Source: an uncultured Rivularia sp.
GTDB lineage: Bacteria > Cyanobacteriota > Cyanobacteriia > Cyanobacteriales > Nostocaceae
Direction of reading: 5' to 3'
DNA length: 64,000 nt
NCBI GenBank assembly: GCA_963665115.1
Contig: OY762007.1
Location: 224,001-288,000, forward strand
The notes under the pieces are model-generated. The model did not search any database. It was not told where the DNA came from and worked only from the letters and a program-made list of their open reading frames with translations. Made by a program: the position numbers and the translations under genes. Shown piece by piece: positions 35,665 through 56,181 of this stretch (its first letter is position 1; each line of letters begins with the position of its first letter).

Positions 35665-37338
35665 ATGTGGAGTGTCAAACAAGACGGTTTATCGCCAATT
35701 CGGGATAGGGGTGTTATGAATAATTCTCATGATAAAGCAGATGATAGTAAGGATATTCCTAATTTTGAACTTGTTGAGCAAATAGATTTGATGATTCGAG
35801 CGCGGTATCCTCTACTATATATGGTTGCCGTGGAAGAAGAGCCTTTAGAAGAGGTTTTGTTTAAAGTTGCTGCGCTTTCTCAACCACCGCGTCAGGTGTT
35901 GTATTGGGATATTGTGCGTGGTTGGAGCGATAACGGTGCGGATAAAGGCTCTGTAATGGCACCTCTGGCTCGGATTGGTAAAGCTGATGCCCAAAAATCG
36001 GTTATTTTCGTGTTGCGGGATTTGCACCCATACGTCAAAAATCTGACTACGGAAAGAAGTGCGCCGATTGTGCGGGAGTTGCGAAATTTAGCCAGGGAAT
36101 TGAAGCGCAGTCGTAAGTCTATTATTCTTACCAGCCATACTTTGGAAGTACCTGAAGAGTTGAAAGAGGAAGCTACGGTTGTTGATTTCCCTTTACCCGA
36201 TGTACCTCAAATTAACTATTTAGTTGAACAGTTGGTGGTACCGGAAAAGCTGAAATTAGCAGGTTTGGCGCGGGAGCAGTTGGTAAAAGCCTGTCAGGGA
36301 TTAAGTCGAACCCGGATTCAGCGAGTTTTGGCGAAAGCTTTGGCAGCGAAACAGCAGGTTAATGAGTCTGATATCAGCGGTGTTTTGGCAGAGAAAAAGC
36401 AAACTATTCGTCAAACCGGGATTTTAGAATTTTTTACACCTTCCGAATCCTTGAAACGAGTCGGAGGATTAGATCAACTTAAACAATGGGTGCAGTTGCG
36501 TCAAGATGCTTTCACCGAAGAAGCCAGACGTTACGGTATACCCAATCCCAAAGGAGCATTGCTCGTTGGAATTCAAGGTACGGGTAAATCTTTGAGTGCA
36601 AAAACCATTGCTCACGAATGGCGTTTACCGTTATTGCGACTTGATACAGGGCGCTTGTTTGGCGGAATCGTCGGCGAAAGTGAAAGCCGCGTGCGCCAAA
36701 TGATTCAGCTTACCGAAGCAATGGCACCATGCGTGTTGTGGATAGATGAAATAGACAAAGCATTCGGAAATATTAGTAGCGGTGTTGATGGAGATTCGGG
36801 AACATCGCGACGGGTATTTGGTAGCTTGATTACCTGGATGCAGGAGAAAACTAGTCCGGTATTTATTGTTGCCACGGCGAATAACGTGCAAATATTGCCA
36901 GCAGAATTGTTAAGGAAGGGAAGATTCGACGAAATATTCTTTTTAAACTTGCCCACCGAAGCCGAAAGACAAGACATTTTCAAAGTTCATATTCAGAAAT
37001 TACGTCCCAACCGAGTGCGAGATTTTGATTTAATTTTATTAGCTAGTAGAACAGAAAATTTCAGTGGAGCAGAAATAGAGCAAGTAATAATTGAAGCAAT
37101 GCACAATGCTTTTTCTAGTAAACTTGACGGGCAGCGTCGCGACTTTATCACCGAAGATATACTTAAAGCAATAGAAGTTACAGTTCCTTTGGCTTCCATA
37201 GCTAAAGAACAAATTGATGCATTAAAACAATGGGCAGCTCAAGCAGGTGCAAGGAGTGCTTCTAATGACGTGCAGTTAGTAGAAGAATTGAAACAGTATA
37301 GCTCCGGGAATGGGATATCGCCGTTGGAAGTCGATTGA
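35665..37338 (+). CDS. Ycf46-family AAA+ ATPase
   Basis: IRARYPL..EEE N-domain, VGGLDQLKQW, GIQGTGKS Walker A, VGESE pore loop, WIDEIDK Walker B, ATAN, RKGRFDEIF; alternative start 35716. Confidence 0.92.
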   Translation: MWSVKQDGLSPIRDRGVMNNSHDKADDSKDIPNFELVEQIDLMIRARYPLLYMVAVEEEPLEEVLFKVAALSQPPRQVLYWDIVRGWSDNGADKGSVMAPLARIGKADAQKSVIFVLRDLHPYVKNLTTERSAPIVRELRNLARELKRSRKSIILTSHTLEVPEELKEEATVVDFPLPDVPQINYLVEQLVVPEKLKLAGLAREQLVKACQGLSRTRIQRVLAKALAAKQQVNESDISGVLAEKKQTIRQTGILEFFTPSESLKRVGGLDQLKQWVQLRQDAFTEEARRYGIPNPKGALLVGIQGTGKSLSAKTIAHEWRLPLLRLDTGRLFGGIVGESESRVRQMIQLTEAMAPCVLWIDEIDKAFGNISSGVDGDSGTSRRVFGSLITWMQEKTSPVFIVATANNVQILPAELLRKGRFDEIFFLNLPTEAERQDIFKVHIQKLRPNRVRDFDLILLASRTENFSGAEIEQVIIEAMHNAFSSKLDGQRRDFITEDILKAIEVTVPLASIAKEQIDALKQWAAQAGARSASNDVQLVEELKQYSSGNGISPLEVD

Positions 37339-37492
37339 AGAGAGAGGGGGAAGAGGGGGAAGAGGGGGGATGGGGAGATAGGGAGATGGGGAGAAATAGC
37401 GAGCAAGATGCTCGCACTACATAAATAAGATTAATATTTCTAATTCCCAATGTCCAATTACCAATTACCAATTACCAATTACCAAATTAATC

Positions 37493-37867
37493 ATGTCACA
37501 TTTTACAAGTATCAAGGTTCAAATTAAGCACGGTGAAATTTTGCATCAGGTGTTGCAAGAATTAGGCTATCAAGTTGAATGCAATACTCAAGTAAGAGGA
37601 TATCATGGCGATCGCACTCAAGCTGAATATGTAATTCGGCAAAATAATGGTTACGATTTGGGTTTTCGTCGTCAAGGTGAAAATTATGAAATCGTAGCTG
37701 ACTTTTGGGGTGCGAAGATTAATCAAAAGCAATTTGTAAATTCAATTACTCAAAAGTATGCTCATAAAACTCTGATGAATACTGTTGCGGAACAGGGTTT
37801 TAATGTTGAGGAAGAGGAAGTTTTATCAGATGGTACCGTGAGGGTTGTTGTGGGGAGTTGGGTTTAG
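37493..37867 (+). CDS. DUF1257/Ycf35-family protein
   Basis: MSHFTSIK, VRGYHG, DLGF, ADFW, QKYA, GF.V.EE...DGTVRVVV. Confidence 0.88.
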   Translation: MSHFTSIKVQIKHGEILHQVLQELGYQVECNTQVRGYHGDRTQAEYVIRQNNGYDLGFRRQGENYEIVADFWGAKINQKQFVNSITQKYAHKTLMNTVAEQGFNVEEEEVLSDGTVRVVVGSWV

Positions 37868-37940: not shown

Positions 37941-38348
37941 ATGTCACATTTTACAAGTATAAAAACTCAAATAAAAGATAGAGACGCATTAGTTAAAGCT
38001 TTGGCTGATGTGGGTTTAAAAAATATTGAAGTTCACGAAACCGCAGAAAGTTTATATGGCTATCAAGGTGATATGCGAGCGGAAACTGCTGAGGTGATTA
38101 TTCGACGTAAATATGTTGGATCTTCTAGTAATGATATTGGTTTTAAATTACAGGATGATGGGCAGTTTCAAGCGATTATATCTGAATATGACCGTCATCG
38201 ATACAATCAACAATGGTTGGGTAAGGTGATGCAGCGTTACGGGTATTATACTTTGATGGCTTCGGCTGAGGAGCAGGGGTTTGCGGTGGAGGAAGATGAG
38301 GTGATGGAGGATGGTACGGTTAGGGTTGTTGTGGCGAGGTGGGCTTAG
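37941..38348 (+). CDS. Second DUF1257-family protein
   Basis: MSHFTSIKTQI, LYGYQG, SNDIGF, SEYD, QRY, GF.V.E...DGTVRVVV. Confidence 0.85.
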   Translation: MSHFTSIKTQIKDRDALVKALADVGLKNIEVHETAESLYGYQGDMRAETAEVIIRRKYVGSSSNDIGFKLQDDGQFQAIISEYDRHRYNQQWLGKVMQRYGYYTLMASAEEQGFAVEEDEVMEDGTVRVVVARWA

Positions 38349-38375: not shown

Positions 38376-39579
38376 TTACTCGGCTAATCCCCAAACTTTG
38401 ACTGTTTGATCGCTACTTCCGCTGAACAAATATTTTCCATCTGGGACTTAAGACGATTGAGTTAACTTCTGCTGAATGTCCTGTTAATGTAGCTTGAAGT
38501 TTTCCAGTTCTCCAATTCCAAACTTTGATTGTTGTATCGTTACTAGCGCTGATTAAAGTTTTACCATCTGGGCTAATTGCAAGGGAGTTAACTCCTAAAG
38601 AATGTCCTTCTAAAGTTCGTATTAGTTCTCCTTTCTGCCAATTCCAGATTTTAATTGTATAGTCTCCGCTACCGCTGAATAAGGTTTTTCCGTCTGGAGT
38701 TAGACATAAAGCTTTTATCCAAAATGAATGTCCTTCTAAAGTACGTATTAATTTTTTCTGTGCTTGCCAATCCCAAATTTTGATTGTATAGTCTCCGCTA
38801 CTACTAAATAAAGTTTTTCCGTATACAGTTAAGGAAAATATAGGTTTCGTATGTCCTCGTAAAAGACATTTACGCTTATGATGAGATATATCCCATGCTT
38901 TTATGGTACCTTTTTCATTACCAATAAATAGAATATCACCACTCTTATTAATTGTTAAAGAATGATGCAATCCACTATCATTACGATTTAAAATGTGTTG
39001 AGAATATGGTTCTTTCCAGCTTAATTCTAAAATCAAACCGTTTCTACTGCGAATAAAAACAGTTTCTCTCCGTTGGTTAATACACACAAAGTTAATTGCT
39101 TCGCTATCGTAAGATAAAAAATCCTCGTCATTCATAAAAAGTTTTTTAAATTGCTTTTTCCGCCATTCCCAAATAATAAGGCTGTCTTCACCACCGCTAA
39201 TAACAGTACCGTCGGGAGATATACAAACCGAATTAATTCTAGATTCATGTTCTTCAAGCGTTGAAGTACAATCAAAAATTTGATATTTACTATATTTTTC
39301 TAATTTCTGTACAATTCGCGTTTCCTCTCTTTCTTTCAATATTGAATATGCTATTTTTTTAACCTCTTGTTCATTATCTAGTAAAGCTTTGATTATTAAA
39401 TCTAAACCAGCTTCACTATAATTCAATGCTTGATATAATCCTGCAATTCGTGCTTTCACATCAGGATTCTGTAAGCTTCGTTTAACACCTTCAATTCCTC
39501 CCAAAACTGCACCATCAATAGGAGCTTGATTTCCACCACCAAGCACCACATCGTATTCTCTGGGTTGATTGTCTGACAT
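38376..39579 (-). CDS. N-terminal VLGG/HEAT-like module plus WD40-repeat protein; apparent +1 frameshift at 38443-38445
   Basis: QPREYDVVLGG..GAVLGGIEGVKR; GH...W(D/N) repeats; removing one base gives SPDGKYLFSGSSDQTVKVWGLAE*. Confidence 0.85.
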
Positions 39580-39690: not shown

Positions 39691-40314
39691 TTAAGGAGAG
39701 GGAAGTAATTCTAATTGAATTTCGCATTGTTTAAATATAAAATTGAGCGCTGCAAATAATTTGTTTAAGTCAGATATGGTATAAATATTGATTTCTTTGG
39801 TAAATAAATTATCTGTTAACTTACCAAACTGCCAAACTTGCCCATTAGATACAATACCAAAGACTGATTGTTGCTTTAACGAATCATTTATCTTCTGAAT
39901 CGCTACCATTTCCGATAAACATTGACCCCAACCTTTGATAAAATCATCTTTTTTAGCTTCTACAGCAACAAAAAAAGGTTTGTCAAATACTTCTTTTCCT
40001 AAAGCAGATTTTTTAGCTAATAGATAATCAGGTATTCCCGATAATTTTTCATCGTAAACGAGTGCTTTGTGACTCCATAAAGTGAATTTATCTCGGTAAC
40101 TGCGATAGAGTTCTTTTAAAACGGGAAAAATTATTGCTTCACAAATCGCGTATTCGGATTCGTTATAGTTAAATTCTCTTAATGAGAACATTAATTCTTC
40201 TTGAAAGCTTTCTCTAATTATAAATTCTGTTTCGATGATGAAGTTTTCTTCGGTAGAACTGATATTGTATTCTTTTAAAACTTCGCCGATGTTTTTGTAG
40301 GAATCAAAGGACAT
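39691..40314 (-). CDS. Cyanobacterial PD-(D/E)xK-fold (HsdR_N-like) hypothetical protein
   Basis: SE...CE..IFP, G.PDY, VEAKKDDF..GWGQC..EM, GIVSNG..WQF. Confidence 0.65.
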   Translation of the reverse strand: MSFDSYKNIGEVLKEYNISSTEENFIIETEFIIRESFQEELMFSLREFNYNESEYAICEAIIFPVLKELYRSYRDKFTLWSHKALVYDEKLSGIPDYLLAKKSALGKEVFDKPFFVAVEAKKDDFIKGWGQCLSEMVAIQKINDSLKQQSVFGIVSNGQVWQFGKLTDNLFTKEINIYTISDLNKLFAALNFIFKQCEIQLELLPSP

Positions 40315-40391: not shown

Positions 40392-40640
40392 ATGTACAAC
40401 GTAGAAATACCTGACAACCAAGCAGACTTTGCAAAATTACTCCAGCGTGTATTATCCGGGGAAGAAGTAGTAATATCCCAAGACGGTAATCCGATTGCAA
40501 GAGTAGTTCCAATTGCTGATAAATCATTACCACGAATTCCTGGTTTAGATAAAGGTAAAGTGGTGATTGCTTCGGATTTTGATGCTCCTTTACCTGATGA
40601 TATTTTAAATAGTTTTACTAATCCTGTTGATAATTTGTAA
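40392..40640 (+). CDS. Phd/YefM-family antitoxin
   Basis: LLQRV..GEEVVI...G.PIARVVP, DFDAPLP; overlaps the toxin start (TAATG). Confidence 0.88.
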   Translation: MYNVEIPDNQADFAKLLQRVLSGEEVVISQDGNPIARVVPIADKSLPRIPGLDKGKVVIASDFDAPLPDDILNSFTNPVDNL

Positions 40641-41026
40641 TGAAAGCTTTACTTGATACTCATGCTTTTTTATGGTGGGTTACAGAAGATTCTCGGCTTT
40701 CATCTACAGCTAGAAATATAATTACTGATTCTAATAATCAGCTATTTTTAAGTACAGCAAGCGCATGGGAAATTGTAATTAAAGCACGATTAGGTAAATT
40801 AACTTTACCAGAACCACCTGAGATTTACATTCCAAATCGTTTAACGGTAAATAGATTTGAAAGTTTATCAATTCACTTGATTCATGCTTTACAAGTTGTG
40901 AATTTACCAGATTTACACAAAGATCCTTTTGATAGAATTATAATAGCTCAAAGTCAAGTTGAGAAAATGCCGATTTTAACTTCAGATAGTCAAATTAAAC
41001 GGTATTCTGTTGATATTATTTGGTAA
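40640..41026 (+). CDS. vapC: VapC PIN-domain toxin
   Basis: LLDTHAFLW, SAWE, HKDPFDRIIIAQ, TSD. Confidence 0.92.
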   Translation: MKALLDTHAFLWWVTEDSRLSSTARNIITDSNNQLFLSTASAWEIVIKARLGKLTLPEPPEIYIPNRLTVNRFESLSIHLIHALQVVNLPDLHKDPFDRIIIAQSQVEKMPILTSDSQIKRYSVDIIW

Positions 41027-41048: not shown

Positions 41049-42245
41049 TCAACCCCAGATTTTAACTGTTTTATCTCTACTACAACTAACAAGAGTTTTA
41101 CCATCGGGACTAATTGCTATACTGTAAACCCAATCTGTATGTCCTTCAAGGATACGGATACATTCTCCTGTATGTAAATCCCATATTCTAATTGTTTCGT
41201 CTCTACCACAACTGACAATTGTACTTCCATCAGGGCTGATAGCTACACAATAAACTAAGTCTTTATGTCCTTCTAATGTAAATTGAAGTTTTTTCGTTTC
41301 TAAATTCCAAATTTTTATTGTTTTATCTTTACTACCGCTAACAATTGTCTTATTATCTGGACTGACAGCTACTGATTCAACACCTTTTGAATGTTTCGTA
41401 TTTTTAAAAGTATGTATTAATTCTCCTGTTTCTACATTCCAAGCTTTGACATTTTTATCGTTAGCACCACTGATGATAGTTTTTCCATCTGGACTAATTG
41501 CTAATGCTTGAACCAAATAACTAGAATGTCCGGGAAAAGTATTAATCTGTTCTCCTGTTTTCAAATCCCAGACATGAATTCCAACATTTTGATAAATATG
41601 TTCAGCACCACAGAAAAGTTTATTTCCATTAGAACTAATTGCTAAGGAAAATACTTGATATGAACGTTCTTCTAAGGTCAACAAGCATTCCTTTGTTTTC
41701 AAATCCCATATTTTAATCATATTATCGCGGTCATAAGTACCACCTCTAGTAATAATATTTTTGTCATCAGGGGTAATTAAAATAGTTCTCGGGTATTTAT
41801 GATTTATAGAAGTTGCTTCAACTTTTCCCGTACATAAATCGTATATATTTATAGAGTTTGAACCATCAAAAAACACTTTTCCATTTGAATCAATAGCAAT
41901 ACACCTACTGTTAACATTTGGTAAAGTATGAATACATTCCATCTTTAACCAAGGATTATATTCTTCCAAGGCTTGTTTTACTTTCGCTTCTTCCCTCTCA
42001 CGTAATAGCGAATAAGCAGCAAAACTTACTTTTCCAAGCTCTTTCTGCCAAACTTGAATCACAAACTCTAAACCCACATCTCCATAATTCAACGCTTCTG
42101 AAAGTGCAACAATCTTCTGTTGAATATTCGCTGTTTCCCAACGTCTTTTAACACCTTCAATTCCCCCTAAAACAACACCATCAACAGGAGCTTGATTTCC
42201 ACCACCAAGCACCACATCATATTCTCTAGGTTGATTCTCCGACAT
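41049..42245 (-). CDS. N-terminal VLGG/HEAT-like module plus WD40-repeat protein
   Basis: QPREYDVVLGG..GVVLGGIEGVKRR; about 7 WD40 repeats. Confidence 0.9.
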   Translation of the reverse strand: MSENQPREYDVVLGGGNQAPVDGVVLGGIEGVKRRWETANIQQKIVALSEALNYGDVGLEFVIQVWQKELGKVSFAAYSLLREREEAKVKQALEEYNPWLKMECIHTLPNVNSRCIAIDSNGKVFFDGSNSINIYDLCTGKVEATSINHKYPRTILITPDDKNIITRGGTYDRDNMIKIWDLKTKECLLTLEERSYQVFSLAISSNGNKLFCGAEHIYQNVGIHVWDLKTGEQINTFPGHSSYLVQALAISPDGKTIISGANDKNVKAWNVETGELIHTFKNTKHSKGVESVAVSPDNKTIVSGSKDKTIKIWNLETKKLQFTLEGHKDLVYCVAISPDGSTIVSCGRDETIRIWDLHTGECIRILEGHTDWVYSIAISPDGKTLVSCSRDKTVKIWG

Positions 42246-42527
42246 CACAATTACCTCTCTAAAATCTCTTTCCTCTGCGCTCTCCGCACGCCACTTGCTA
42301 CAAGTCGGGAAACCCGCCCAATGCAGTGGCTTGTCTCTGCGGTTTAATAATTCAATCAGTTAAAACAATTACAAACCTCTTAACTGCGTTCACATCCACC
42401 TGGGGTTGCAAACCCCAGGCTAATAGCGAAAGTCCTATAAATAGGACTAGGATTTTCACGCTTATAATTTAGTAATTTATTTTCAAAATTTTATTTATAT
42501 TCTAAGTATTTATACTAAAAATTCAAA

Positions 42528-44094
42528 TCATTTTAATTTAGCGATCGCCTCTCTCACAATCAAGGCTTTCCCTGTCAATAAATCCCGCACGGTAGCTACC
42601 AACATCCTCTGCTCGTTAACGCCAAATTTTACGGAAACTCTATCGATTCCCAATTCTCCAGGTGGCTCTAAATGCGCTATACAAACTTGTTGATGTTGAG
42701 TATCTAAGGAGCGATAGGTTTCCTGTTTCACTAAATGACTGCTTGTCATTCTTCCTTGAGCATCATAAGTAACTTCAGCTTGAGACATTTCCGCAATTTC
42801 ACCGATGTCGAGACGAATCTCTTTTTGTCCTTCTATGGCTGCCTGTAATATCAATGGTTCGTCAATTCTGGCTTTTTTATCGTTATTCCCTAAATAATTT
42901 GTACCTTTTTCAATCAATGTCATGTAGGAATATTTTTTACTATGGGGTTCCCATAACCGAATTGCATAGCTATGACGCAAATAATCATCGATTTCTACCA
43001 TTTCGTTTAAAGCCAAACCCCCATGTGCTACTGCTTCAAAGGGTTTGTCTAATTTAACTTTCTGTCTGCCAAAATAAGAAACAATCAATTGCTGTACTGC
43101 TTGAATTTGACAGCTACCTCCCACTAATAAAACCTTTTCTATATCCGCTTTGCCGATTCCTTTACTCAAGGCGATCGCTAACACTTCATCTAATGTCTGT
43201 CGCAGTTGCTCTAATAACTGACGATTCTCTAAAATATCTGCTAATTCATTCGGGTTTAACTGCAATTCGTGAGACATAAAATTCTCGTCGTCAAACCAAG
43301 ATTCCTTGGCTTCATTATCTGTGGAAAGCTTCATTTTCAATCTTTCGGCAATTTCCAATAAATTCTGATAACCAATTTCCCCTACTTCTTCCCGACTTGA
43401 ACTTGTTTTTCGCAGATAATCTTCGACAATCCAATTATCGATATCTATTCCACCCACAAAAGCATCGGATTTGGCGATAACTTCCGCACGTACAGATGAA
43501 GATTGAGAATTACTTTTGACGGTACGAACTAAACTTAAATCCAAAGTTCCACCACCGAAATCCACCACCAAAACCAAGCTGCCGGGGCGTTTTACAGCAT
43601 AACCTAAAGCTGCTGCTGTGGATTCATCAACGATTTGCAATTCGGGAATACCGAGCTTTTCACCCAAACCGTTAAACCAATGCAAATATCTTTCAAAAGC
43701 ACCCACGGGAACGGTAAAAATAACTCGACTGGGTTCCAATTGTTGTTTTACGTGACTCCAAATTTCTTTTAAAAACAGTTCCGATATCGCTTCAGCACTG
43801 TAATTAACATCATCCAAAACGCGGGGAGGGGGAACAAAATCCGCCGCTAAATCCCGTTTAAATGCTTGAAAATACCGCTGTGGTTGACTAAAACCCAATC
43901 TTTGAGAGCGTACAGGTTCGCCAAAAATCAAATTATTTGGCGATTTGACGAATACTTGCGAAGGAATCACGCTTACTTGGTTGAAACGACGTGAAAGCGA
44001 ATCAAATTTTAATGTACGCGGTTGTTGAGTAATAGTGTCGGTGGTACAAACAATGGTATTGCTGGTTTCCGAAGTCGATAATTATTGTTGTCAT
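42528..44094 (-). CDS. Atypical Hsp70/DnaK-family protein; apparent +1 frameshift at 44066-44068
   Basis: Corrected N-terminus MTTIIIDFGTSNT; IPS, TVP, ESTAAALGY, VDFGGGTLD, GGIDID, LVGGS; divergent C-terminal beta domain and no helical lid. Confidence 0.88.
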
Positions 44095-45195: not shown

Positions 45196-45414
45196 TCAAC
45201 CGTTTTTATTCTTCAAAGATTGATTTTCAGTTGAAGTAATATTTTCCTCCCCTTCGTAATATTCGGGAAGCAATTCTTGACTTTCCACTTCTCCTAAAGC
45301 GTCTTCAATTCCGGAAGTGGTTTCGGTACATCCAGCACCGGAAGCGCCGATGACATTCTCAGTAATTTTACCGTCTTTACCAATGCGATATTCTACTTTC
45401 CTATACTCAGCCAT
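45196..45414 (-). CDS. DUF2997-family protein
   Basis: IGKDGKITE.V.G..G..C...T..IE.ALG.V......EYY. Confidence 0.85.
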   Translation of the reverse strand: MAEYRKVEYRIGKDGKITENVIGASGAGCTETTSGIEDALGEVESQELLPEYYEGEENITSTENQSLKNKNG

Positions 45415-47891: not shown

Positions 47892-49266
47892 TCATTTCAA
47901 TTCATATCTCTGCATCAATTCCCTAACTTTGCTAGAAAACAACCATTCCCCAATCGCATCGGAATATTCCACACCAGTTTGAGTCAATCGCAATATTCTG
48001 CTGTCATTAACAACTAAATTCAAATCAATTAGCTCCGATAACTCCGGAAAATCGCTAAATAATTCTGTATTAAATTGCGTTTGATATTGATGTAAATTCA
48101 ATCCTTCATGAGAAAGTAATGACAATAAAATGTACCTTCTGCGCTTCTCTTCAGCATCCAGCTGAAAACCGTAATTAACAAAATCAAAGGAATCTTCCGG
48201 TGTTTGAATATACCCTTGCAAAATCTCGCTGATTCCCTTTCCTCCAACAGCGTATTCGTTGGAATAATGCAAATCATCAGTATAAGAAACGCGCTCCGCA
48301 TCCGATTCCGACCATTCCGTCTTGTTGACAACAGTAAACAGGTTCCTGATGTAGAGACGTTATACATAACGTCTCCTCCGTGTTGCGCTGGAACATTCGC
48401 ATTGATTTTTGGGTGTATCCTTGTGATAAAAGAAAATCCCTTCCTTGACGGTAACAATTCAAGCGGATGTCATCCCATTCTTTTTCTGATGTTCCCAATC
48501 CGGTGAGGGGACGCACGTACAGGGGATACAAAAATATTTCTTCTGGTTCAAACTGCAATGCAGCCCGTATCGATTGCAACCAGGTGTCTACTGTTTGTCC
48601 GGGTAATCCGTAGATTAAATCAATGTTGATTGTGGGAAAACCGGCGGCTCGCATTCTTGTTAGTGCGGCTTCTACTTCGGCGGTGGTTTGACGGCGGTTA
48701 ACTGCTGCAACCTCGGATTCAAAGAAGCTTTGGACTCCGATACTGGCACGGGTAACTCCTCGCGATCGCAACAACCTTAACTTATCTTTGGTAGCGGTTT
48801 CCGGTGACATTTCCACGGATATAGGAATCTGTTGTAAATCCGCGCCCATCGTATCTTCGGCAACATTCAACACGGTTTCTAAATGGTGAATCGGTAACTG
48901 AGTCGGTGTACCTCCACCAATAGCGAGACGTGCAAATGAACTTTTACCCAAAACAGCTTTGACGTGTTTGGCTTGTTTTTGTAGGGTATTGACGTATTGA
49001 GTCACAAAATCTTCATTGTGGGTGACTGTGGTAAATAAATTGCAGAAACCACACCTCATTTCACAAAATGGGATGTGAATGTAGAGGAATAAAGCGTTTT
49101 TGTCTTCTTGACTCCAGACATCGGTGAGGGGTTTTCGGGGGGAAATCGGACGATAAGCGGTTTTGTGGGGGTAGGAATAAACGTAGGATTGGAAGATTTT
49201 GGATTTTAATAAAGGATGGGTTGGCAACGGATGGCGGATTGGTAACGGATGGTTGTTGGTTATCAT
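47892..49266 (-). CDS. HemN-like (class C) radical SAM protein, STM4012-like; apparent +1 frameshift at 48287-48289
   Basis: YVYSYPHKTAYR, LYIHIPFCEMRCGFCNLF, GGGTPT, SIGVQSF, IDLIYGLPGQ, YCCQ..GMVG.GCGAR; corrected frame ARSYTDDLHYS joins the 47892-48272 ORF. Confidence 0.85.
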
Positions 49267-49381: not shown

Positions 49382-50203
49382 TCATGCATTCCCAGGTGAA
49401 ACCTGGGAACGAGAAAGGTGAGTCTCCAACACAAATTCCCCATAAGGAACAGTCCACACGACGGGATGACTAACCCGGTGTCCGGTGTAACCATCTTCAC
49501 CGTATGTTGTTCCGTGGTCGGAGGTGAGTATGCAGAAGGTAGAAGCACGTTTTTGTAAGGCATTCCAGAGTTTTCCTAGTTGAATGTCGATGTATTCCAA
49601 AGCGGCGGCATGAGTTGCTAATGTGTCTGTTTTAGCACCTTCAAGGTAAAAGTAATTGGGTTGATGAAGGGCGGAAATATTAATAAATAAGAATAAACGT
49701 TGACTTTGAGGAGTTTTATTGAGGATTTTCTCGGCTAATAGGATTTGATTTTCTGTAGATTTTGGATCGGTAACTCCTAATTCTCGATTCCAGTAACTTT
49801 CTGCGAACATTGAAGGAATCACGTTACTCAAGGGATTCTGTTTGTTGAAAAATCCTACACCACCAATACAAACGGTATGATAACCCTTGCGCGATAATCC
49901 TTTAACTATATTTTCACCTTCTAAAAGACAAGTTTTTTCCGTAGTTGTGGTACTTCCGGCGAATTTCAAAGCGAACAATCTGGGGTGAATTCCTGGAGTG
50001 ACGGGAGTAGGAAGAAAACCCGCGAAAAATGCTTGATGGGATGCATAAGTAAAACTTCCCGGTGAATGTCGTTTTTCCCAACCATTTGGTAATACCTTGG
50101 CTAAATTTGGAGTGCGGTTTTGTGAAAGTAAATCTGTTGCGATGTCGTAGCGGAGGGTGTCGAGGGTGATGAATACGATGTCGTGGGTGCCGATGATTTG
50201 CAT
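49382..50203 (-). CDS. Alkaline phosphatase/sulfatase-superfamily hydrolase, STM4013-like
   Basis: ITLDTLRYD, SFTYASH, HQPN, TSDHGT.YGE, GH metal-site motifs. Confidence 0.85.
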   Translation of the reverse strand: MQIIGTHDIVFITLDTLRYDIATDLLSQNRTPNLAKVLPNGWEKRHSPGSFTYASHQAFFAGFLPTPVTPGIHPRLFALKFAGSTTTTEKTCLLEGENIVKGLSRKGYHTVCIGGVGFFNKQNPLSNVIPSMFAESYWNRELGVTDPKSTENQILLAEKILNKTPQSQRLFLFINISALHQPNYFYLEGAKTDTLATHAAALEYIDIQLGKLWNALQKRASTFCILTSDHGTTYGEDGYTGHRVSHPVVWTVPYGEFVLETHLSRSQVSPGNA

Positions 50204-50334: not shown

Positions 50335-50727
50335 GTGAATACAGAAAGAAAGGTATTTAGAAGTCATGAGGAATTGGTTGTATTTCAATTGGCTTTTGAT
50401 TCATCAATGGCTATTTATAATATTTCTAAAAAGTTTCCTAAAGAAGAAACATATTCTTTAACAGATCAAATTCGTCGCTCTTCGCGTTCGGTATGTGCTA
50501 ATTTAGCGGAAGCATGGAGAAAAAGAAGATATCAAGCCTCTTTTATTGCAAAGCTAAGTGATAGCGAAGCAGAAGCTGCTGAAACTCAAGTTTGGATAAA
50601 ATTCGCTGTTAAATGCTCCTATATAGAAATTGAACAAGCTAGAGAACTATATAAAACCTACAATCAAATCCTGAAAGGCTTAGTAAACATGATTCACAAC
50701 TCCGAAAAATGGACAATCAAAAAATAA
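50335..50727 (+). CDS. Four-helix-bundle (23S rRNA IVS protein/Avd-like) protein
   Basis: L.VFQ.A, FPKEETYSLTDQIRRSSRSVCANLAEAW, EAAETQVW. Confidence 0.9.
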   Translation: MNTERKVFRSHEELVVFQLAFDSSMAIYNISKKFPKEETYSLTDQIRRSSRSVCANLAEAWRKRRYQASFIAKLSDSEAEAAETQVWIKFAVKCSYIEIEQARELYKTYNQILKGLVNMIHNSEKWTIKK

Positions 50728-50777: not shown

Positions 50778-52017
50778 CTACCCCCTCTCCCCCTCTACCC
50801 CCTCTACCCCCTCCCTTCTTCCCAACAATGCTTTCACCTCACTCATATAAGTATCCATCCCATTCCACAAAATCCCCGGCAACAAATCCCCAAAAGCATT
50901 AATTTCCAAAACCGCGTGTTGTTCCCAATCCGGTAAAATCATCAAGTCAACTCCGCAATATAAACTATTAGGAAATAAAGCAGCAGCTTCTTCACAAGTA
51001 CGTTTAATTTTCTGCCAATTCTCATCACCAACTTTGTCTAAAAATTCATTTATATTTCCTCTTTCGTTACCCAAATGTAAGTTAGTCATCGGACTTTTTC
51101 CCAAACGAACAACTGTATGTTGTGCTTCACCATCGATAACCACAACTCGCAAATCAAAACCGCATCCTTGTAACCGTGCTTTCGGTAGCCATTCCTCAAC
51201 AATTACCCCTTCGGCAGTTAAAATATTGATAATATCGGCGATTTCTTCGCGTTTTGTATAGTTACGAATTCTGCGGGAGTTATACAGTAAAGTTTCCCCG
51301 TCTTCTCGTACTCTTTCCACGGTAGTGATAGCCGATTCAAAGCGGGAATTAGCGCGGTAAGCGATGACACCAGAAGCGCTCGAACCGTGAGATAATTTTA
51401 TGAAAACCCGTTCCAAACCTTGAGATTGCATTTGTTCGCGCAGATGTTCGTAACAGTGGATTTTACCCAAACTACGCGCTACGGGAACGTTATTTTTGCT
51501 AAATATTTCGTGACACCTTGGTTTGTCAAACATTACCGCAATATCACGGGGATGATTCATAACTTTATTCTCCCCTCTACTTAAACAAGGAGAGGGGTTG
51601 GGGGTGAGGTTTCAATTCCTGTTCCCATCGTTGCAACAAATTTCGCCATCCCAAATACCACTGTCGCGGATAAAGAATCCTTCCCTTATCAAACTCCAAC
51701 TTCTCAACTTCATTAGAAGTAATCCGTTGATAATTATTATTTTCTACCCCCTCTTCCCCCTCTTCCCCCTCTTCCCCCTCTCCCCCCTCTAACTCCTCCC
51801 CAGCAGCAATAATCGCTTTATCAACCTCAAAGTTTTTCTCCGGAGAATCAAAGCGGATGATATTGTTGGGTTTGAATTGTTCGAGGTTTTGTTCACCTGT
51901 AATTAAGTCTGCATAGGATATGACGGTTGCGGGTGGTAGGTTGAGGTTTGCAAGTGCTTGTTGGAGGAATCCGACGCGACGGTTTTCGGGGTTGGCTATG
52001 ATAGTTAGGGTTTTCAT
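50778..52017 (-). CDS. ATP-grasp protein, STM4014-like; apparent +1 frameshift at 51583-51585
   Basis: N-part NPENRR, RFDSP, YPRQWY; C-part FDK, KLSHGSSASG, VEEWLPK, DLRVVV, PMTNLH, GVD, LEINAFGDL; removing one T joins the parts (LSLLSRGENKVMNH). Confidence 0.82.
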
Positions 52018-52032: not shown

Positions 52033-53271
52033 TTATTCAGATAATGCCCAATAACGCATACTAGATTCATCCTCATTTTGAGGATGTGCAATTAAGCAGC
52101 AATCAGGAGGTGATAATTGTTCAACTTCTTCAATAAATTCTTTAGTCACGTAGTTATGAGAAATATTAAAGGTATATAAATTAGAAAGGCTAGGGACTTC
52201 AAGTAAGGTTTCTAAACCTTCATCACTTAAATTTCCCATCGATAAATCAAGTATTAAAAGATGACCAATTATAGGATTGTCAGCCATAAAAGAAGATTCT
52301 GTAATCGCATTAGCAATTTCATCAGCATATTTGCTGCTATGTATTCCTAAATAGCTTAGTTTCGGAAATGATTCGCTAAAAAGAATTGGCTTCAAATTTT
52401 TAATCACATTGTTTAAGCTATTTTCAAATTGCCTACCTATCTCTATTTCAAAGCATCCATCTATCCATAAATCCAAATATTCTAAAGCAGGTAAATTCAG
52501 CGAACACATCATCTGAAACTCAATGTTTCCAATGTATGTCGTTTCAATAACAAGTGTTTTTAAATTATCATGTGCTAATATGCTACATTCCAAATGATTA
52601 CAACAACCACGAAGGTGCAAAATTTCTAAATTTGGATAACCTTCTAACAATAAATTGATATCACCAATCCCAAAATAAGATTGCCTAGATTCGTATCTTT
52701 GCTCATCACCTAAGAATAAAGCTTTTAAATTAGATAAGCTTCTGCGATTGTCAAAAATAGTATTAACAAAATCATAATATTCTTGATATATTTTGCATTT
52801 ATAAGAATGATTCTGTAAATAACAAATCAAAGCTTCAACTTCATTTACCCTATTGTCTTGGATTAAAAGTTTTAATTTCTCCAAATTCACAACATAAGCT
52901 TTACCCTCTGGATTCACAATTCCAATTTCAGAATCAAACTCTTCAACTTCCCAATCATTCAACTTCGTAAAATACAAATAAGGATCGAATTTCAACAGCG
53001 CTTGTTTACCCTTTTCACCTCCCCTTTCCTTTAACAACCTCACAGCAAAACTTTTTACCTGTAATGAATCATCTTCCAACGCTTCAATCACCAAATCTAA
53101 ACCCGCTTCCCCATAATTCAAAACATCCGAAAGCGCTTTAACTCGTACATCTACAATTTCACTTTCTAACCGTCGCTTAACTCCTTCAATTCCTCCCAAC
53201 ACAGCACCCGTAACCGGAGGTGGGTTGTTTCCGCCTAAAACTGCGTCGAATTCTCTTGGCTGTTGTGACAT
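52033..53271 (-). CDS. N-terminal VLGG/HEAT-like module plus STM4015-like LRR protein
   Basis: QPREFDAVLGG..GAVLGGIEGVKRR; LKALFLGD, YPNLEILHLRG, LKTLVIET, LDLSMGNL; ends RYWALSE. Confidence 0.85.
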   Translation of the reverse strand: MSQQPREFDAVLGGNNPPPVTGAVLGGIEGVKRRLESEIVDVRVKALSDVLNYGEAGLDLVIEALEDDSLQVKSFAVRLLKERGGEKGKQALLKFDPYLYFTKLNDWEVEEFDSEIGIVNPEGKAYVVNLEKLKLLIQDNRVNEVEALICYLQNHSYKCKIYQEYYDFVNTIFDNRRSLSNLKALFLGDEQRYESRQSYFGIGDINLLLEGYPNLEILHLRGCCNHLECSILAHDNLKTLVIETTYIGNIEFQMMCSLNLPALEYLDLWIDGCFEIEIGRQFENSLNNVIKNLKPILFSESFPKLSYLGIHSSKYADEIANAITESSFMADNPIIGHLLILDLSMGNLSDEGLETLLEVPSLSNLYTFNISHNYVTKEFIEEVEQLSPPDCCLIAHPQNEDESSMRYWALSE

Positions 53272-53344: not shown

Positions 53345-53469
53345 ACCCGCTTGCGGTTGCAAACCACAAGCTAATAGCAGAAGTCCATTAAAATGGACTG
53401 AAAATTGTAATTTTTTAGTCCTATTTATAGGACTTTCGCTATTAGCCTTGGGTTTGCAACCCAAGGTGG
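53345..53469. mobile_element. About 125-bp palindromic MITE/REP-like element, family B; second copy 54782-54907, half copies 42396-42449 and 12314-12345
   Basis: Inverted halves GGTTGCAAACC-GCTAATAGC-AGTCC..GGACT / AGTCC..GGACT-GCTATTAGC-GGGTTTGCAACCC. Confidence 0.7.
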
Positions 53470-53476: not shown

Positions 53477-54724
53477 TTATTCCCACACAGAATAATATCG
53501 ATCGCAAAATTGCCCATTTGTAATCACTTGACAATCTAATTCGGATAATTTTTGAATCATCTTTGTTTGTAAACGGTTTCCAGAAACGTTAAAAGTATGT
53601 AAATTATTAATTGCAGAATTCCCAAGTATAGCCATTGCACCACCGCTTCCCATATTTCCATCTGTGAGTTCAAGTACTTTCAAATTTTTCATGATTGGCG
53701 AATTAATAATAGCTTTGGCTAATTGACTTGTATTGTTGCTTTTCCTAATCGCTAAATACGCTAAGTTTTCACAATATTTACCTGATAAGATTGGTGCAAG
53801 ACTATCAATATTTACCTCTTTTAATTTATTTCTACTTACCCAAATCTCAAGGTATTCTAAAGATGGTAAATTTAAATTGCACAGTTCCGCTAGATTTTTA
53901 TCAGTTATACCATCAGCATCAATAATTAAGGTTTTTAAATAATCGTGTTTTATAGCTTTTGGTTTAACAAGAGATTTATTCTTGATATTACGGATTGCTA
54001 AAATTTTATTGTCAGATACCAAAATATCTTCATTAAGCATTTTACCCCGAATATGAAGTATTTCAAGATTCGGATATGCTTTGAGTATCGGATAAATATT
54101 ACAAACGTTAATCCTGGAATATTTATATTTTTTATTCCATGTTTCGCAATTATCTCCAATGAATAAAGCTTTTAAGCTCACAAGTTTATCTTTAGCATCT
54201 GCAAGTAAATCAACAAAGTTTTTAAAAGAATTTTTATGATTTTTGTCTTGATAATATATCTCAAATCTGAACGCTTCTAAATATTTGGCTCTCTTATAGT
54301 GTATTAATCTATTAAAATCGTATATATCGCTTATAGCATATACTGCATCATCTATAGTATTAATGAGTTTGTTGTGAGAAAAATATTCTTCATGTTGCCA
54401 ATTATCAAAAGTTGTAAAAACTAACCAAGGATCAAATTCTAATAATGCTTGTTTTCCTTTATTTTCAGACTTGCGTAAAATCGAAATAACTTTATTATTT
54501 ATCTCTTCCGATGAATCTCCTAAAGCTTCAATAACTAAATCTAACCCTTCATCCCCATAATTCAAAGCATCCGACAAAGCCTTAATTCGCACATCTACAA
54601 TTTCACTTTCCAACCGTCGCTTTACCCCTTCAATTCCTCCTAACACAACACCCGTAACCGGAGCCGGATTTTTCCCACCTAAAACTGCGTCGAATTCCCT
54701 TGGTTGATTTTTATTGCTATTCAT
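53477..54724 (-). CDS. N-terminal VLGG/HEAT-like module plus STM4015-like LRR protein
   Basis: QPREFDAVLGG..GVVLGGIEGVKRR; LKALFIGD, YPNLEILHIRG; ends RYYSVWE. Confidence 0.85.
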   Translation of the reverse strand: MNSNKNQPREFDAVLGGKNPAPVTGVVLGGIEGVKRRLESEIVDVRIKALSDALNYGDEGLDLVIEALGDSSEEINNKVISILRKSENKGKQALLEFDPWLVFTTFDNWQHEEYFSHNKLINTIDDAVYAISDIYDFNRLIHYKRAKYLEAFRFEIYYQDKNHKNSFKNFVDLLADAKDKLVSLKALFIGDNCETWNKKYKYSRINVCNIYPILKAYPNLEILHIRGKMLNEDILVSDNKILAIRNIKNKSLVKPKAIKHDYLKTLIIDADGITDKNLAELCNLNLPSLEYLEIWVSRNKLKEVNIDSLAPILSGKYCENLAYLAIRKSNNTSQLAKAIINSPIMKNLKVLELTDGNMGSGGAMAILGNSAINNLHTFNVSGNRLQTKMIQKLSELDCQVITNGQFCDRYYSVWE

Positions 54725-54918
54725 TTTTTTATTATTTGATATTTGCTAAAAAACTTTTGACAAATTTGGCGTTGATATTCACACCTGCTTACGGTTGCAA
54801 ACCGCAAGCTAATAGCAGAAGTCCATTAAAATGGACTAATTGACTTGAATTATTCAGTCCTATTTATAGGACTTTTGCTGTTAGCCTTGGGTTTACAACC
54901 CAAGGTGATTTAGGGTTT

Positions 54919-56181
54919 TCACTCAGTCACAGCACAATACCGATATCCATATTCTTCTTCATCATGCTCGTCATTTTGCTTCTCTGCTAACAATTGACAA
55001 TTAAGCGTAGACAAATCATCAACCATTTCATCTGATAAACGAGCTTCGGAAACGTTAAGAATATCAAGCTCGTTTACCGCTGCACAACTAAGCAAAATTT
55101 CCGCACCTTCATCACTCAAATTTCCCAAAGATAGATCGAGTACGCTAATCGTTTCAATTAAAGGAGATTTAATTACAGCTGCTGCAATATCATCCGCAAA
55201 TTGACTGTTACGCAATCCTAAATAATTCAAATCGGGAAATACTAAATCTTTAACAATCGGTTTTACGTCTACAACCGTACAATCTCCACCATAGTTGTCG
55301 CTACCAAACCATAATTCTAAATGCTCTAATGCTGGGAGATTCATGTTGCAAATTTGAGCAACTGCTTGAGGCTCTAATCCCCCAGTTTCTACAATTAGCG
55401 TTTGTAAATTGTTGTGTCGCACTGGTGCATTGAATTGTAATCGCTCTCCCCCGCGTATTTGCAATACTTCTAATTGAGGATAAGCTCTCAAAATCGGACT
55501 TACATCTCCTTGTGCAATCCAAGATATTTCGCTTTCTTCGTAGTGAATGTCACCAATAAATATGGCTTTTAAGTTAGTTAATTTATCCTTAGCATCGACA
55601 AGCCCATCAACGATTTCATTGCTACCAATTTCCCTATCATCACTCCACAAACCAATAATCAAAGCTTCTAATTGACTGGCTCGCGAATCTTGCAAAATAC
55701 TTGTAATTTGTTCTGCTATGGAAGGGCGACTACCATCCCAATCCCATCGTAAAGCATAAGCTGTATTCGCAGCGTCTTCAATCCCAACTTCCGAAGAATA
55801 ATCAACAACCTGACGATTAGCAAACCGCTCGGCGTGCAACCCTTTATACCCCCTATATCCCTGCAATCGCTCAAATAAATCCCAAGGTTGATATTCTCGC
55901 AACGCTTGCTTAACCTTTGCTTCTTCTCTACGTCGCAATAACTTATAAGCATGACGCTGTAATATCTTCGGTTTATTTTGCAATGCTTGAATCACCAACT
56001 CCAAACCAACTTCTTGATAGTTAAGAGCATCGGTAAGCGCTGCCAATTTTACGTCTGCTACCGGATTCGATAACCTACGCTTTATCCCCTCAATTCCACC
56101 TAACACCGCACCATGAATCGGAGGTGGAGATTGTCCCCCCAAGACAGCATCATATTTTCCCGGTTGTTGATTCTCTGGCAT
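54919..56181 (-). CDS. N-terminal VLGG/HEAT-like module plus the most canonical STM4015-like LRR protein
   Basis: QPGKYDAVLGG..GAVLGGIEGIKRR; LEALIIGLW, FIGDI..EESEISWI.QGDV, LIVETGGL, LELWFG...YGG; ends RYCAVTE. Confidence 0.87.
   Translation of the reverse strand: MPENQQPGKYDAVLGGQSPPPIHGAVLGGIEGIKRRLSNPVADVKLAALTDALNYQEVGLELVIQALQNKPKILQRHAYKLLRRREEAKVKQALREYQPWDLFERLQGYRGYKGLHAERFANRQVVDYSSEVGIEDAANTAYALRWDWDGSRPSIAEQITSILQDSRASQLEALIIGLWSDDREIGSNEIVDGLVDAKDKLTNLKAIFIGDIHYEESEISWIAQGDVSPILRAYPQLEVLQIRGGERLQFNAPVRHNNLQTLIVETGGLEPQAVAQICNMNLPALEHLELWFGSDNYGGDCTVVDVKPIVKDLVFPDLNYLGLRNSQFADDIAAAVIKSPLIETISVLDLSLGNLSDEGAEILLSCAAVNELDILNVSEARLSDEMVDDLSTLNCQLLAEKQNDEHDEEEYGYRYCAVTE

Follow-up and report, generated by a model that had tools for sequence, protein, structure and literature searches.

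Gene content of the block

The window analysed here, a 64,000-nucleotide stretch of the genome of an uncultured Rivularia sp., carries a 20.5-kb block (35665..56181) with AAA and DUF1257 genes on the plus strand and LRR, enzyme, Hsp70/GrpE and WD40 genes on the minus strand. Every gene named in the initial annotation was found, in the order and on the strand given there, while a Phd/PIN pair and a four-helix-bundle gene, both on the plus strand, had been omitted from it. Family profile scans matched AAA and AAA_lid, both DUF1257 proteins, DUF2997, HSP70 and both WD40 proteins.

The chaperone core comprises five kinds of gene. The AAA+ ATPase (35665..37338, +; likely start 35719, giving 539 residues as in relatives), which we take to be of the Ycf46 type, has intact Walker A (GIQGTGKS), Walker B (VLWIDE) and arginine-finger (RKGRFD) motifs and a non-aromatic pore loop (GGIVGESE). 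It matches PHROG 8638 with an E-value of 2e-163; there is no Ycf46-named model among its family-profile matches. Two DUF1257 (Ycf35 family) genes, both identified by family profile, follow: copy a (37493..37867, +) and copy b (37941..38348, +), the second being an optional part of the core. In related loci DUF1257 always adjoins the AAA gene. The model of copy a (pLDDT 89.5) is a small soluble alpha/beta fold with weak matches to KA1/TBP-like folds (Z up to 6.6).

On the minus strand, DUF2997 (45196..45414; family profile), a GrpE-like protein (44330..45112) and a short Hsp70 (42528..44094, ~520 residues) form a unit, with DUF2997 as its first gene, that is present in 32 of 34 Hsp70 loci. The Hsp70 stops after the predicted peptide-binding sandwich, and we infer that it is lidless; its nucleotide-binding motifs (DFGTxN, FKR, DESTAA, DFGGGT and GG) are invariant in 29 homologues. 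With 89 bits against a cut-off of 648 and a length of ~520 residues, it is not a canonical full-length DnaK. The GrpE-like protein consists of a hydrophobic N-terminal segment (a predicted membrane anchor present in nearly all homologues), an optional HTH insert, a coiled coil and a GrpE-type head. For the protein in the window the assignment to GrpE is weak, with no match at E<=0.01 in a Pfam scan, and it is better supported among its relatives: a homologue matches the GrpE family with an E-value of 4e-5 (weak, below the gathering score), a paralogue scores above the gathering score, and the family profile matches E. coli GrpE (1dkg) with an E-value of 0.004.

Paralogues of all five core genes are scattered and near-universal, and this genome has them too, but the block versions form separate clades (AAA at most 51% identity, Hsp70 ~37–41%). 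Phage families exist for AAA, DUF1257 and DUF2997. A search of 13 block proteins against PADLOC 2.0 gave only generic AAA, radical SAM, WD40 and PD-(D/E)xK matches; nothing in that collection related the core genes to a toxin, to a nuclease effector or to a defence system already known.

The second group of genes is an STM4011-15 cassette, with all five families in their usual order. The NCBIfam models of the four enzymes, which are adjacent in the block, all score above their cut-offs: STM4011, a radical SAM protein with a CxxxCxxC motif and additional C-terminal cysteines (45578..46423, −; 414.6 bits, cut-off 200), STM4012, a HemN-like radical SAM protein (47892..49266, −; 469 bits, cut-off 380), STM4013, an alkaline-phosphatase-superfamily hydrolase (49382..50203, −; 422 bits, cut-off 250), and STM4014, an ATP-grasp ligase (50778..52017, −; 341 bits, cut-off 175). 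The fifth family, STM4015, is represented by four LRR proteins, only one of which, LRR 1 (54919..56181, −; 304 bits, cut-off 275; C-terminal tail RYCAVTE), passes the NCBIfam model. LRR 2 (53477..54724, −; tail RYYSVWE), LRR 3 (52033..53271, −; tail RYWALSE) and LRR 4 (46445..47719, −; ending in LLEF) score 137–151 bits, below the cut-off. In related cassettes a phosphodiesterase-fold hydrolase is obligatory, an HAD phosphatase is often added, and SMI1/KNR4, ankyrin, WGR and bpX6 genes lie within or next to the cassette. In the portions of the literature available to us, STM4011–STM4015 appear only as entries in tables.

An intact orthologue of STM4014 was modelled with a pLDDT of 88.5. The best Foldseek matches are ArgX in complex with LysW (3vpb, the top match), PsnB, RimK and LysX. 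Sequence identity to these matches is 13–16%, and the scores of D-Ala-D-Ala ligases are close behind, so the fold does not fix the substrate.

Two WD40 proteins (protein 1, 38376..39579, −; protein 2, 41049..42248, −; both with family-profile matches) flank the remaining genes: a PD-(D/E)xK-like protein (39691..40314, −; PADLOC model, E 7e-48) and the Phd antitoxin and PIN toxin (40392..41026, +; family profiles). Together with the four-helix bundle, which resembles 23S rRNA IVP and bAvd proteins (50335..50727, +; family profiles), these are passengers, since the genome has at least 14 other PD-(D/E)xK paralogues and most related loci lack these genes. The block also holds repeat elements.

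In this assembly, frameshifts interrupt four genes: STM4014 (at ~51570, within a repeat-element insertion), STM4012 (at ~48289, +1), Hsp70 (at ~44066, +1) and WD40 protein 1 (at ~38443, in the last repeat), so that STM4012 and STM4014 are each read in two frames. Hsp70, STM4012 and STM4014 are unbroken in the loci of close relatives (L018, L020, L021 and L028). Split genes are also seen elsewhere in the genome, where one criterion counts 15 among 162 conserved genes, compared with 2 of the 14 block genes of at least 200 residues, which makes assembly indels the simpler reading; judged from sequence, all four frameshifts are probably assembly errors.

The N-terminal tag and the glutamate tail

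All six WD40 and LRR proteins share an N-terminal module, which the initial annotation had noted in genes on both sides of the chaperone genes. It occupies, for example, the first ~100 codons of WD40 protein 1 and positions 55882..56181 (−) of LRR 1, and begins with the motif [YF]DAVLGG-x8-[AV]VLGGIEG, which is covered by no Pfam family; a pair of HEAT-like helices comes after it. Six of its 12 genomic copies lie inside 20.5 kb of an 8.69-Mb genome, where 0.03 would be expected if they were evenly spread. The proposal that this tag ties the whole block together stands in part: what it links to the chaperone core is the repeat proteins and not the enzyme cassette, and the other six copies are found outside the block.

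The tag is carried by proteins with WD40, LRR, lectin-fold, TPR, GUN4 and SUKH domains, and in 237 of 242 cases it stands at the N-terminus. One SUKH domain bears it with the helices missing, and next to receiver domains it is found inside the protein; a module for docking explains this better than a leader that is cleaved off. All six long Hsp70s examined are Hsp70-linker-WD40 fusions, and their linkers contain the tag motif in four cases (E 3e-10 to 8e-5) and a remnant of it in two; the core genes of the window itself have no fused tag. Among 121 genomes, 33 of the 34 with the core are tagged, compared with 12 of the other 87, and at least six genomes (G041, G064, G074, G095, G104 and that of locus L053) have a full tag without this Hsp70. 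A comparison of 86 tag sequences with known families gave only HEAT_2, GUN4_N and HEAT, and no named effector-associated domain (EAD) family, among the 25 of 31 families listed. A diversity-generating retroelement acting on the tagged lectin-fold genes was considered and rejected, as a motif search of all four tagged FGE genes found no template repeat; two motif patterns found no reverse transcriptase in genome G000.

The opposite ends of the LRR proteins are conserved too. Of 147 C-termini, 125 end in glutamate and 120 in R[YF]xxxxE, a tail that is also found in Acidobacteriota. Tails are conserved within each paralogue clade: that of LRR 2 is identical in Nostoc orthologues, and LRR 4 and its closest orthologues share the lack of a glutamate tail. 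The idea in the initial annotation that the enzymes make or install a modification can be sharpened: as far as sequence conservation can tell, their likely substrate is the C-terminal tail of the LRR itself.

Co-occurrence of the core and the cassette

The AAA and Hsp70 clades of the core are each found in 34 of the 121 genomes of the order sample and share 31 of them; two of the three AAA-only genomes carry a fused Hsp70 and the third a broken one. The AAA clade, the Hsp70 clade and the tag correlate well above chance even when unlinked (phi of 0.88 and 0.77), which bears out one part of the co-occurrence expected by the initial annotation. The other part fails, as STM4014 and the core are nearly uncorrelated (phi 0.08): STM4014 is found in seven genomes of this sample, four of which lack the core, and in 3 of the 34 core genomes. 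The family sample (151 genomes) agrees, with 17 of 28 core genomes lacking STM4014 and 7 of 18 STM4014 genomes lacking the core. The genomes are related, so co-occurrence p-values overstate the association. With STM4014 missing from 31 of 34 core genomes in one sample and from most in the other, the claim of one system could not be upheld. The block is instead two modules, the chaperone core and the STM4011-15 cassette, bridged by tagged LRRs (LRRs 1–3 in the window).

STM4014 is present in 11 of 13 genomes of Hsp70 subclade A (tree support 1.00) and in none of the 15 genomes of subclade B. That subclade A has kept both could be due to a linked block having been inherited or transferred as such. 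Gene order is alike across Rivularia-like genomes, and linkage recurs in Nostoc and Leptolyngbya-like genomes. A core gene lies within ~10 kb of STM4011 in 24 of 50 full-length loci, in several gene orders; these loci were found by similarity to the window and are therefore biased toward its relatives. Among 56 scorable STM4011 loci, 46 have a tagged LRR and the core, 2 an untagged LRR and the core, 1 a tagged LRR without the core, and 7 an untagged LRR without the core, and cassettes without core and tag can be intact. In genome G554 the enzymes are 4.1 Mb away from Hsp70, and a tagged LRR (tail RYCSVAE) still adjoins DUF2997-GrpE-Hsp70. Genome G505 is arranged likewise, and a second Hsp70 clade (L017, L087 and L088) also adjoins tagged LRRs.

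A possible mechanism and its relation to known systems

The reading we favour, with a probability of about one half, is a composite of core and cassette, each also found apart, in which the tag docks LRRs on the Hsp70/AAA machinery and the ligase and radical-SAM enzymes modify the glutamate tail. What the analysis shows is which genes are present, which of them occur together, that tag and tail are conserved, that the tag lies inside Hsp70-WD40 fusions, and what fold the ligase has; the steps proposed to connect these are as follows. The tagged WD40, LRR, lectin-fold, TPR, GUN4 and SUKH proteins would be interchangeable receptors in an F-box-like organisation, with a docking module that stays constant and binding repeats that vary. 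The lidless Hsp70, cycled by the membrane-anchored GrpE-like protein, would grip the tag at its extended double AVLGG motif. The receptor or its bound target would then be unfolded or disassembled by the AAA ring, for which DUF1257 and DUF2997 would act as adaptors. STM4014 would use ATP to activate the terminal glutamate and ligate an amine, probably a phosphate- or nucleotide-bearing one, given the obligatory phosphodiesterase-fold hydrolase and the frequent HAD phosphatase; STM4012 and STM4011 might then methylate or cross-link the LRR tail. The cassette would be an accessory that only some systems carry, comparable to the peptide-processing cassettes of VMAP systems. The most likely setting would be conflict, with foreign proteins being neutralised. 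In keeping with it are the SMI1/KNR4, ankyrin, WGR and bpX6 genes of the cassettes, the immunity and effector domains named below, and the phage families of AAA, DUF1257 and DUF2997. On the other side, the paralogue of the ATPase that has been studied is induced by stress and interacts with KaiC according to the available part of PMC13683863, which points to housekeeping rather than conflict.

The organising logic resembles that of the VMAP/MoxR-vWA ternary and FxSxx-COOH systems as described in the part of Kaur et al. 2020 (PMC7159879) available to us. These also have a constant chaperone-type NTPase core and a small module that is found on many variable domains, is multicopy and lineage-specific, and also occurs in fusion with one of the core proteins; some of them are in addition joined by an independent radical-SAM cassette, whose target is a conserved motif at the C-terminus. 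The same EAD principle is seen here: the tag sits on variable proteins both close to the core and distant from it, its presence correlates with that of the core, and a copy is fused to Hsp70 in four of six long Hsp70s. The engines differ (MoxR-vWA or a GTPase there, a Ycf46-type AAA with lidless Hsp70, GrpE-like protein and DUF1257/DUF2997 here), and family scans of the block found no MoxR-vWA or TRAFAC GTPase families. Compared with the systems described in that part, the block has a tag outside the listed EAD families, a candidate modified tail on an LRR of about 400 residues instead of a short precursor, and no zincin peptidase; the main text, as far as available, contains no occurrence of Ycf46, DUF1257, DUF2997, ATP-grasp or LRR. 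Polyimmunity loci (Zhang et al. 2012, PMC3482391, seen in part) likewise have tandem, strain-variable LRR, ankyrin, HEAT and SUKH genes, listed there as immunity proteins, while the description seen includes no shared tag, dedicated chaperones or tail-modifying enzymes, and the present loci have no cognate toxin. The Ycf46, Ycf35 and DUF2997-Ycf35-Fed7 reports (PMC13683863, PMC5940233 and PMC4284462, each seen in part) concern the same protein families, whose versions in the block form separate, patchy clades, clustered and tied to tagged proteins; the literature found does not link Ycf46 or Ycf35 to an Hsp70-GrpE pair. With respect to the STM4011-15 families (NF038073, NF006067, NF038075, NF038074 and NF038076), the block is distinguished by an STM4015 that is tagged, quadruplicated with distinct tails and placed inside a chaperone core.

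In SCF ubiquitin ligases, F-box receptors combine a constant N-terminal module with a WD40, LRR or lectin-like binding domain and serve one engine. The likeness would be one of design; the block has no ubiquitin, E1/E2 or cullin and its engine is a chaperone pair. The LysW pathway, for its part, features a small carrier and a releasing peptidase. LysX/ArgX-LysW and RimK-S6 glutamylation share with the block an ATP-grasp fold group beside a protein with an invariant C-terminal glutamate (use of that residue by RimK and LysW is covered in the available part of PMC10375531). The block does not have the make-up of an amino-group carrier pathway of the LysW kind: its glutamate is on a large LRR of 300–420 residues that often comes in several variants, the ligase is accompanied by two radical SAM proteins as well as a hydrolase of phosphodiesterase fold instead of lysine/arginine pathway enzymes, and no peptidase family is found in the block or recurs among 139 accessory ORFs of the loci.

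Core and cassette might be mere neighbours: the core and the tagged proteins would be a real system beside which the cassette landed in a variable island, an LRR gaining the tag by recombination and the two being linked DNA since. Each module occurs alone, gene order varies, passengers and repeat elements fill the block, and the LRR tree does not separate the tagged LRRs from the untagged ones. We hold this to be unlikely, if worth serious weight, because tagged LRRs expand (35 loci average 2.9 each, and none of the 15 untagged loci has more than 2), their tag stays conserved, they accompany two separate Hsp70 clades, and a tagged, glutamate-tailed LRR stays by Hsp70 where the enzymes are megabases off. 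We also doubt that the LRR serves as an amino-group carrier in the manner of LysW, a small molecule being built on it and then released, with the core folding or recycling large repeat proteins in a stress or housekeeping role free of conflict. The terminal glutamate, the top fold match and the near-universal core paralogues agree with such a role, as do a tie of Ycf46 to severe-stress growth arrest (PMC13683863) and the binding of a DnaJ-like protein by Fed7, the neighbour of DUF2997-Ycf35 (PMC4284462; both sources seen in part). Several LRR paralogues per locus with distinct conserved tails are unexpected for a simple carrier, however, and the missing peptidase, the patchy distribution of the core (28 of 151 genomes in the family) and the tagged domains all argue against it, the last because they match the immunity repertoire cited above and the effectors of NTP-dependent conflict systems (FGS, GUN4, TPR, propeller and pentapeptide in the available part of PMC7159879).

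The hydrophobic segment of the GrpE-like protein and the N-terminal position of nearly all tags would suit an export motor, in which the tag is a targeting signal, the anchored GrpE, Hsp70 and AAA pull cargo across or out of the membrane, and DUF1257/DUF2997 are an adaptor or conduit. This is improbable in view of the internal tags by receiver domains, the tags within Hsp70-WD40 fusions, the soluble fold modelled for DUF1257 and the absence of any recurring channel gene across 34 Hsp70 loci. A single obligate system with interdependent parts, favoured by the constant order in Rivularia-like genomes and the recurrent linkage elsewhere, is highly improbable: the genomes with core and no STM4014, and the intact untagged cassettes without core, largely rule it out, and it survives only for subclade A.

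A bolder form of the composite reading, put forward tentatively and rather unlikely as a whole, would make the block a receptor-swapping counterpart of protein quality control. Through one tag, binding domains of at least nine kinds would plug into an Hsp70/Cdc48-like engine that is tethered to the membrane and goes back to ycf46 and ycf35, orphan genes of plastids; in a single lineage a four-enzyme pathway would arm the receptors by building a new C-terminal-glutamate group that marks or poisons captured foreign proteins.

The gene content and architecture of the block match no system or description found in print, and two orphan gene sets of long standing become open to testing together. Ycf46, Ycf35 (DUF1257) and DUF2997, families of cyanobacteria, algal plastids and phages, gain partners in a lidless Hsp70 and a GrpE-like factor. 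The tag provides a candidate docking peptide of 25 residues that is open to mutation. For the STM4011-15 cassette, which has been assigned no function although its range extends from Salmonella to cyanobacteria, the seven-residue tail is a candidate substrate and lends itself to mass measurement. Should both ideas hold, the block would represent a new modular receptor system together with a new radical-SAM/ATP-grasp protein chemistry.

Gene content and integrity of the block

Every gene that the initial annotation had named at window positions 35665–56181 was recovered in ORF lists and family scans, but two insertions had been overlooked, a Phd/PIN pair and a four-helix-bundle (IVP/bAvd-like) gene at 50335–50727. 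The latter lies between STM4014 and STM4013, in either orientation, in 8 of 80 loci (L025, L026, L043, L046, L048, L049, L054, L079), and a motif search found no DGR behind it in G000, the genome of the window. The STM4011 protein is closest (89–96% identity) to those of Rivularia/Calothrix-like cyanobacteria. A 345-residue protein encoded at 33415–34452 (plus strand) contains two internal repeats with an HNH-like stretch; it belongs to no Pfam family, weakly matches a Cas9 model, and has homologues flanking the block in L025 and L028.

Four block genes are frameshifted. Relative to related sequences, single-base insertions occur at ~44066 (Hsp70), ~48289 (STM4012) and ~38443 (WD40 protein 1), and the break in STM4014 sits within a repeat-element insertion. 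Judged by one criterion, 2 of 14 block genes are split, compared with 15 of 162 conserved genes elsewhere, so that assembly error appears likelier than decay. A promoter and terminator scan gave signals no better than chance and so does not support co-transcription.

The chaperone core and the tagged proteins

The core consists of an AAA ATPase of what we take to be the Ycf46 family, DUF1257, DUF2997, a GrpE-like protein and an Hsp70 predicted to lack the lid of the DnaK architecture. It was traced in 121 genomes of the order, related genomes not being independent, with clade cut-offs placed after inspection at gaps in the identity lists. The block Hsp70 clade (at least 52% identity, 34 genomes) is separate from a near-universal Hsp70-like paralogue (37–41%). 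The block AAA clade (at least 67%) is also present in 34 genomes, 31 of them in common (phi 0.88). The three genomes with the Hsp70 only are draft assemblies of 140–850 contigs; of the three with the AAA only, the Hsp70 is fused in two and broken in one. Ten families include both genomes that have the core and genomes that lack it. Of the 34 Hsp70 loci, 32 have an adjacent DUF2997 gene and 32 an adjacent GrpE-like gene; within about 10 kb there is a DUF1257 gene in 15, an AAA gene in 11 and a tagged gene in 15.

The tag is a short N-terminal module consisting of [YF]DAVLGG, usually eight residues, [AV]VLGGIEG and a HEAT-like pair; the strict pattern fits 136 of 209 matches, and Pfam reaches the helical part alone, and weakly. 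A profile built from the six block N-termini matches 12 genes of the genome, half of them within the block; the six outside it are four FGE-sulfatase genes with a lectin fold, one TPR gene and one of unknown type. In related loci the tag is joined to WD40, STM4015 LRR, FGE, TPR, GUN4, pentapeptide, LRV, SMI1/KNR4 and receiver domains; it is internal in three receiver proteins, and a SUKH protein carries the peptide without the helical part. The tag is found in 33 of the 34 Hsp70 genomes versus 12 of the other 87, about half of these 12 matching the helical part only. The idea that the tag is a cleaved leader of the RiPP double-glycine type, serving the enzymes, is rejected because the tag follows the core rather than the enzymes and can be internal. 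An amyloid or nanocompartment signal was also considered; no neighbouring gene supports it.

The strongest independent argument that tagged proteins act together with the block-type Hsp70 comes from gene fusion. All six long Hsp70s examined are Hsp70–linker–WD40 fusions, and in four of them the linker contains the tag motif. Hsp70–tag–WD40 fusions of 849–877 residues form their own clade (L124:4688–7321, L132:9397–11946, L162–L165), and in some the catalytic motifs appear degenerate. That the fusions have kept the motif suggests binding in cis or to another part of the core.

The DUF1257 model has no match in the PDB at E ≤ 0.001; its best fold similarity, to KA1-type domains (Z 6.6), is within the range of common arrangements, and DUF1257 has only two viral homologues. 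No function follows from these results. In the ESM Atlas, the tag and DUF2997 fall in unnamed cyanobacterial clusters, DUF2997 also in clusters from phages and Planctomycetota.

Several variants of these genes lie elsewhere. Paralogues of the five core genes are scattered in G000:C1 (4.58, 4.87, 7.00, 8.01 and 8.40 Mb): DUF2997–Ycf35–Fed7, an Hsp70-like gene (with the block clade, 115 of 121 genomes), several Ycf46-like genes and HTH-GrpE. They may represent an unrecognised housekeeping version of the core machine. The hydrophobic segment and HTH part of the GrpE-like protein has a stand-alone copy with 48% identity (G000:C1:8211650–8213683; L004:7651–9684), which lies immediately upstream of the TPR gene that bears the tag, at a distance of 8 Mb from the block. 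Two genomes, G020 (L101, L103) and G502 (L155, L156), have the core Hsp70 unit in two copies each; L168 and L169 are also listed. G095 and G074 have tagged proteins and a more distant AAA–DUF2997–DUF1257 triad, without a block-type Hsp70. In Leptolyngbya-like genomes, STM4011 is followed by arrays of up to six tagged acidic proteins that belong to no known family, and the same unknown 240-residue protein pairs with one of them in G000 and in L090 (L002:7515–9165, L090:3603–4340, L084, L086–L089). Short palindromic elements stand in intergenic DNA 5' of several tagged genes of the window, which also has 9-bp G/C-rich tandem repeats, one of which is translated within STM4014 (42396–42449, 53327–53469, 54765–54907; 44281–44346, 50200–50278, 51734–51808).

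The STM4011–STM4015 cassette and the LRR bridge

The initial annotation treated the block as a single system, which is overstated: the core and intact cassettes each occur without the other, and untagged intact five-gene cassettes without the core are found in L029, L035, L037, L039, L054, L081, L096 and L160. The co-occurrence that it anticipated holds for the AAA and Hsp70 clades and the tag, but only in part for STM4014, which is above its cut-off in 7 of the 121 order genomes, 3 with the core. In 151 genomes of the host family, STM4014 is present in 18 and the core in 28, with 11 in common (Fisher p 2e-5, its significance exaggerated by kinship). Outside cyanobacteria, STM4014 was found in 4 of 251 genomes in the one phylum sampled.

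The association follows Hsp70 lineage. In the family sample, the cassette is present in 11 of 13 genomes of Hsp70 subclade A versus 0 of 15 of subclade B, and one of the two cassette-less subclade A genomes has a decayed cassette (L023). The subclade B core is one co-directional operon led by tagged FGE lectin-fold genes, followed by AAA, DUF1257, DUF2997, GrpE-like and Hsp70 genes (L148–L153, L118). In a tree of 64 Hsp70s, subclade A has support 1.00, and a second LRR-linked clade and a separate clade of the fusions are also resolved; the deeper branching of this tree is weak, and many tips in subclade A were picked up through STM4011. Cassette and core are 7–10 kb apart in the six subclade A genomes that have both nearby on one contig, and the cassette and Hsp70 are 4.1 Mb apart in G554. 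Tagged glutamate-tailed LRRs stand beside DUF2997–GrpE–Hsp70 in G554 and G505, with others beside the enzymes. Among 80 STM4011 loci, 56 could be scored (the other 24 have no scorable LRR or status; for 28, presence of the core was called on the locus rather than by a genome search): 46 are tagged with core, 2 untagged with core, 1 tagged without core and 7 untagged without core. G104 is another tagged case without the core.

STM4013 has metal motifs of the alkaline-phosphatase superfamily, STM4012 is HemN-like, STM4011 has additional C-terminal cysteines, and a HAD phosphatase lies within or beside two cassettes. SMI1/KNR4, ankyrin-repeat and WGR genes occur in or beside the cassette in L018, L028, L077, L058, L070, L047, L048, L062, L079 and L082. 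The record of L095, labelled Rhizobium, is probably mis-binned; its cassette looks like those of cyanobacteria, as does its block-type Hsp70 (67% identity).

Glutamate is the last residue in 125 of 147 complete LRRs, and 120 have the ending R[YF]xxxxE; at least one such tail is present in 59 of 63 loci, and three of the four LRRs in the window have it. Its 46 variants are kept within paralogue clades across genera in an LRR tree shown without support values. The STM4014 profile matches no PDB sequence at E ≤ 0.1. Modelled from an orthologue that is intact (pLDDT 88.5), STM4014 has its best fold matches in ArgX–LysW, PsnB, RimK and LysX. RimK and LysX/ArgX ligases work on acidic protein C-termini, according to PMC10375531. 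Tail conservation and the predicted ligase fold make the LRR tail a candidate substrate of the cassette.

Proposed mechanism and biological setting

We consider an anatomy of two modules joined by tagged, tailed LRRs well supported (probability about 0.85), much more firmly than any mechanism. Most likely, at roughly even odds, tagged proteins would serve an Hsp70/AAA remodelling engine as exchangeable receptors, by analogy with F-box proteins, and one family of these receptors would, in certain lineages, double as the substrate of the tail-modifying cassette.

Neither module was found described as a system in the literature covered, although journals behind subscription and the supplementary files of PMC7159879 and PMC3482391 could hold such neighbourhoods; the matches were limited to STM genes in tables, the DUF2997–Ycf35–Fed7 cluster and plastid gene surveys. 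The closest likeness is to NTP-dependent conflict systems (Kaur et al. 2020, PMC7159879), which, in the main text of that paper, share the organising grammar of the block but differ in components; there, an independent radical-SAM peptide cassette joins about 20% of actinobacterial VMAP systems.

Two observations count against conflict: the Ycf46 paralogue that has been studied functions in growth arrest linked to stress (PMC13683863), and in a defence-system scan the block genes matched neither an effector enzyme nor any known defence model. We nevertheless prefer conflict as the biological setting, because the domains on tagged proteins and in their neighbours match those of immunity arrays and NTP-dependent conflict systems, because an acidobacterial cassette (L096:2293–10841) lies directly downstream of the bpX6 gene of a MoxR–vWA–beta-propeller ternary system, and because the system is patchy and the AAA–DUF1257–DUF2997 triad has phage families.
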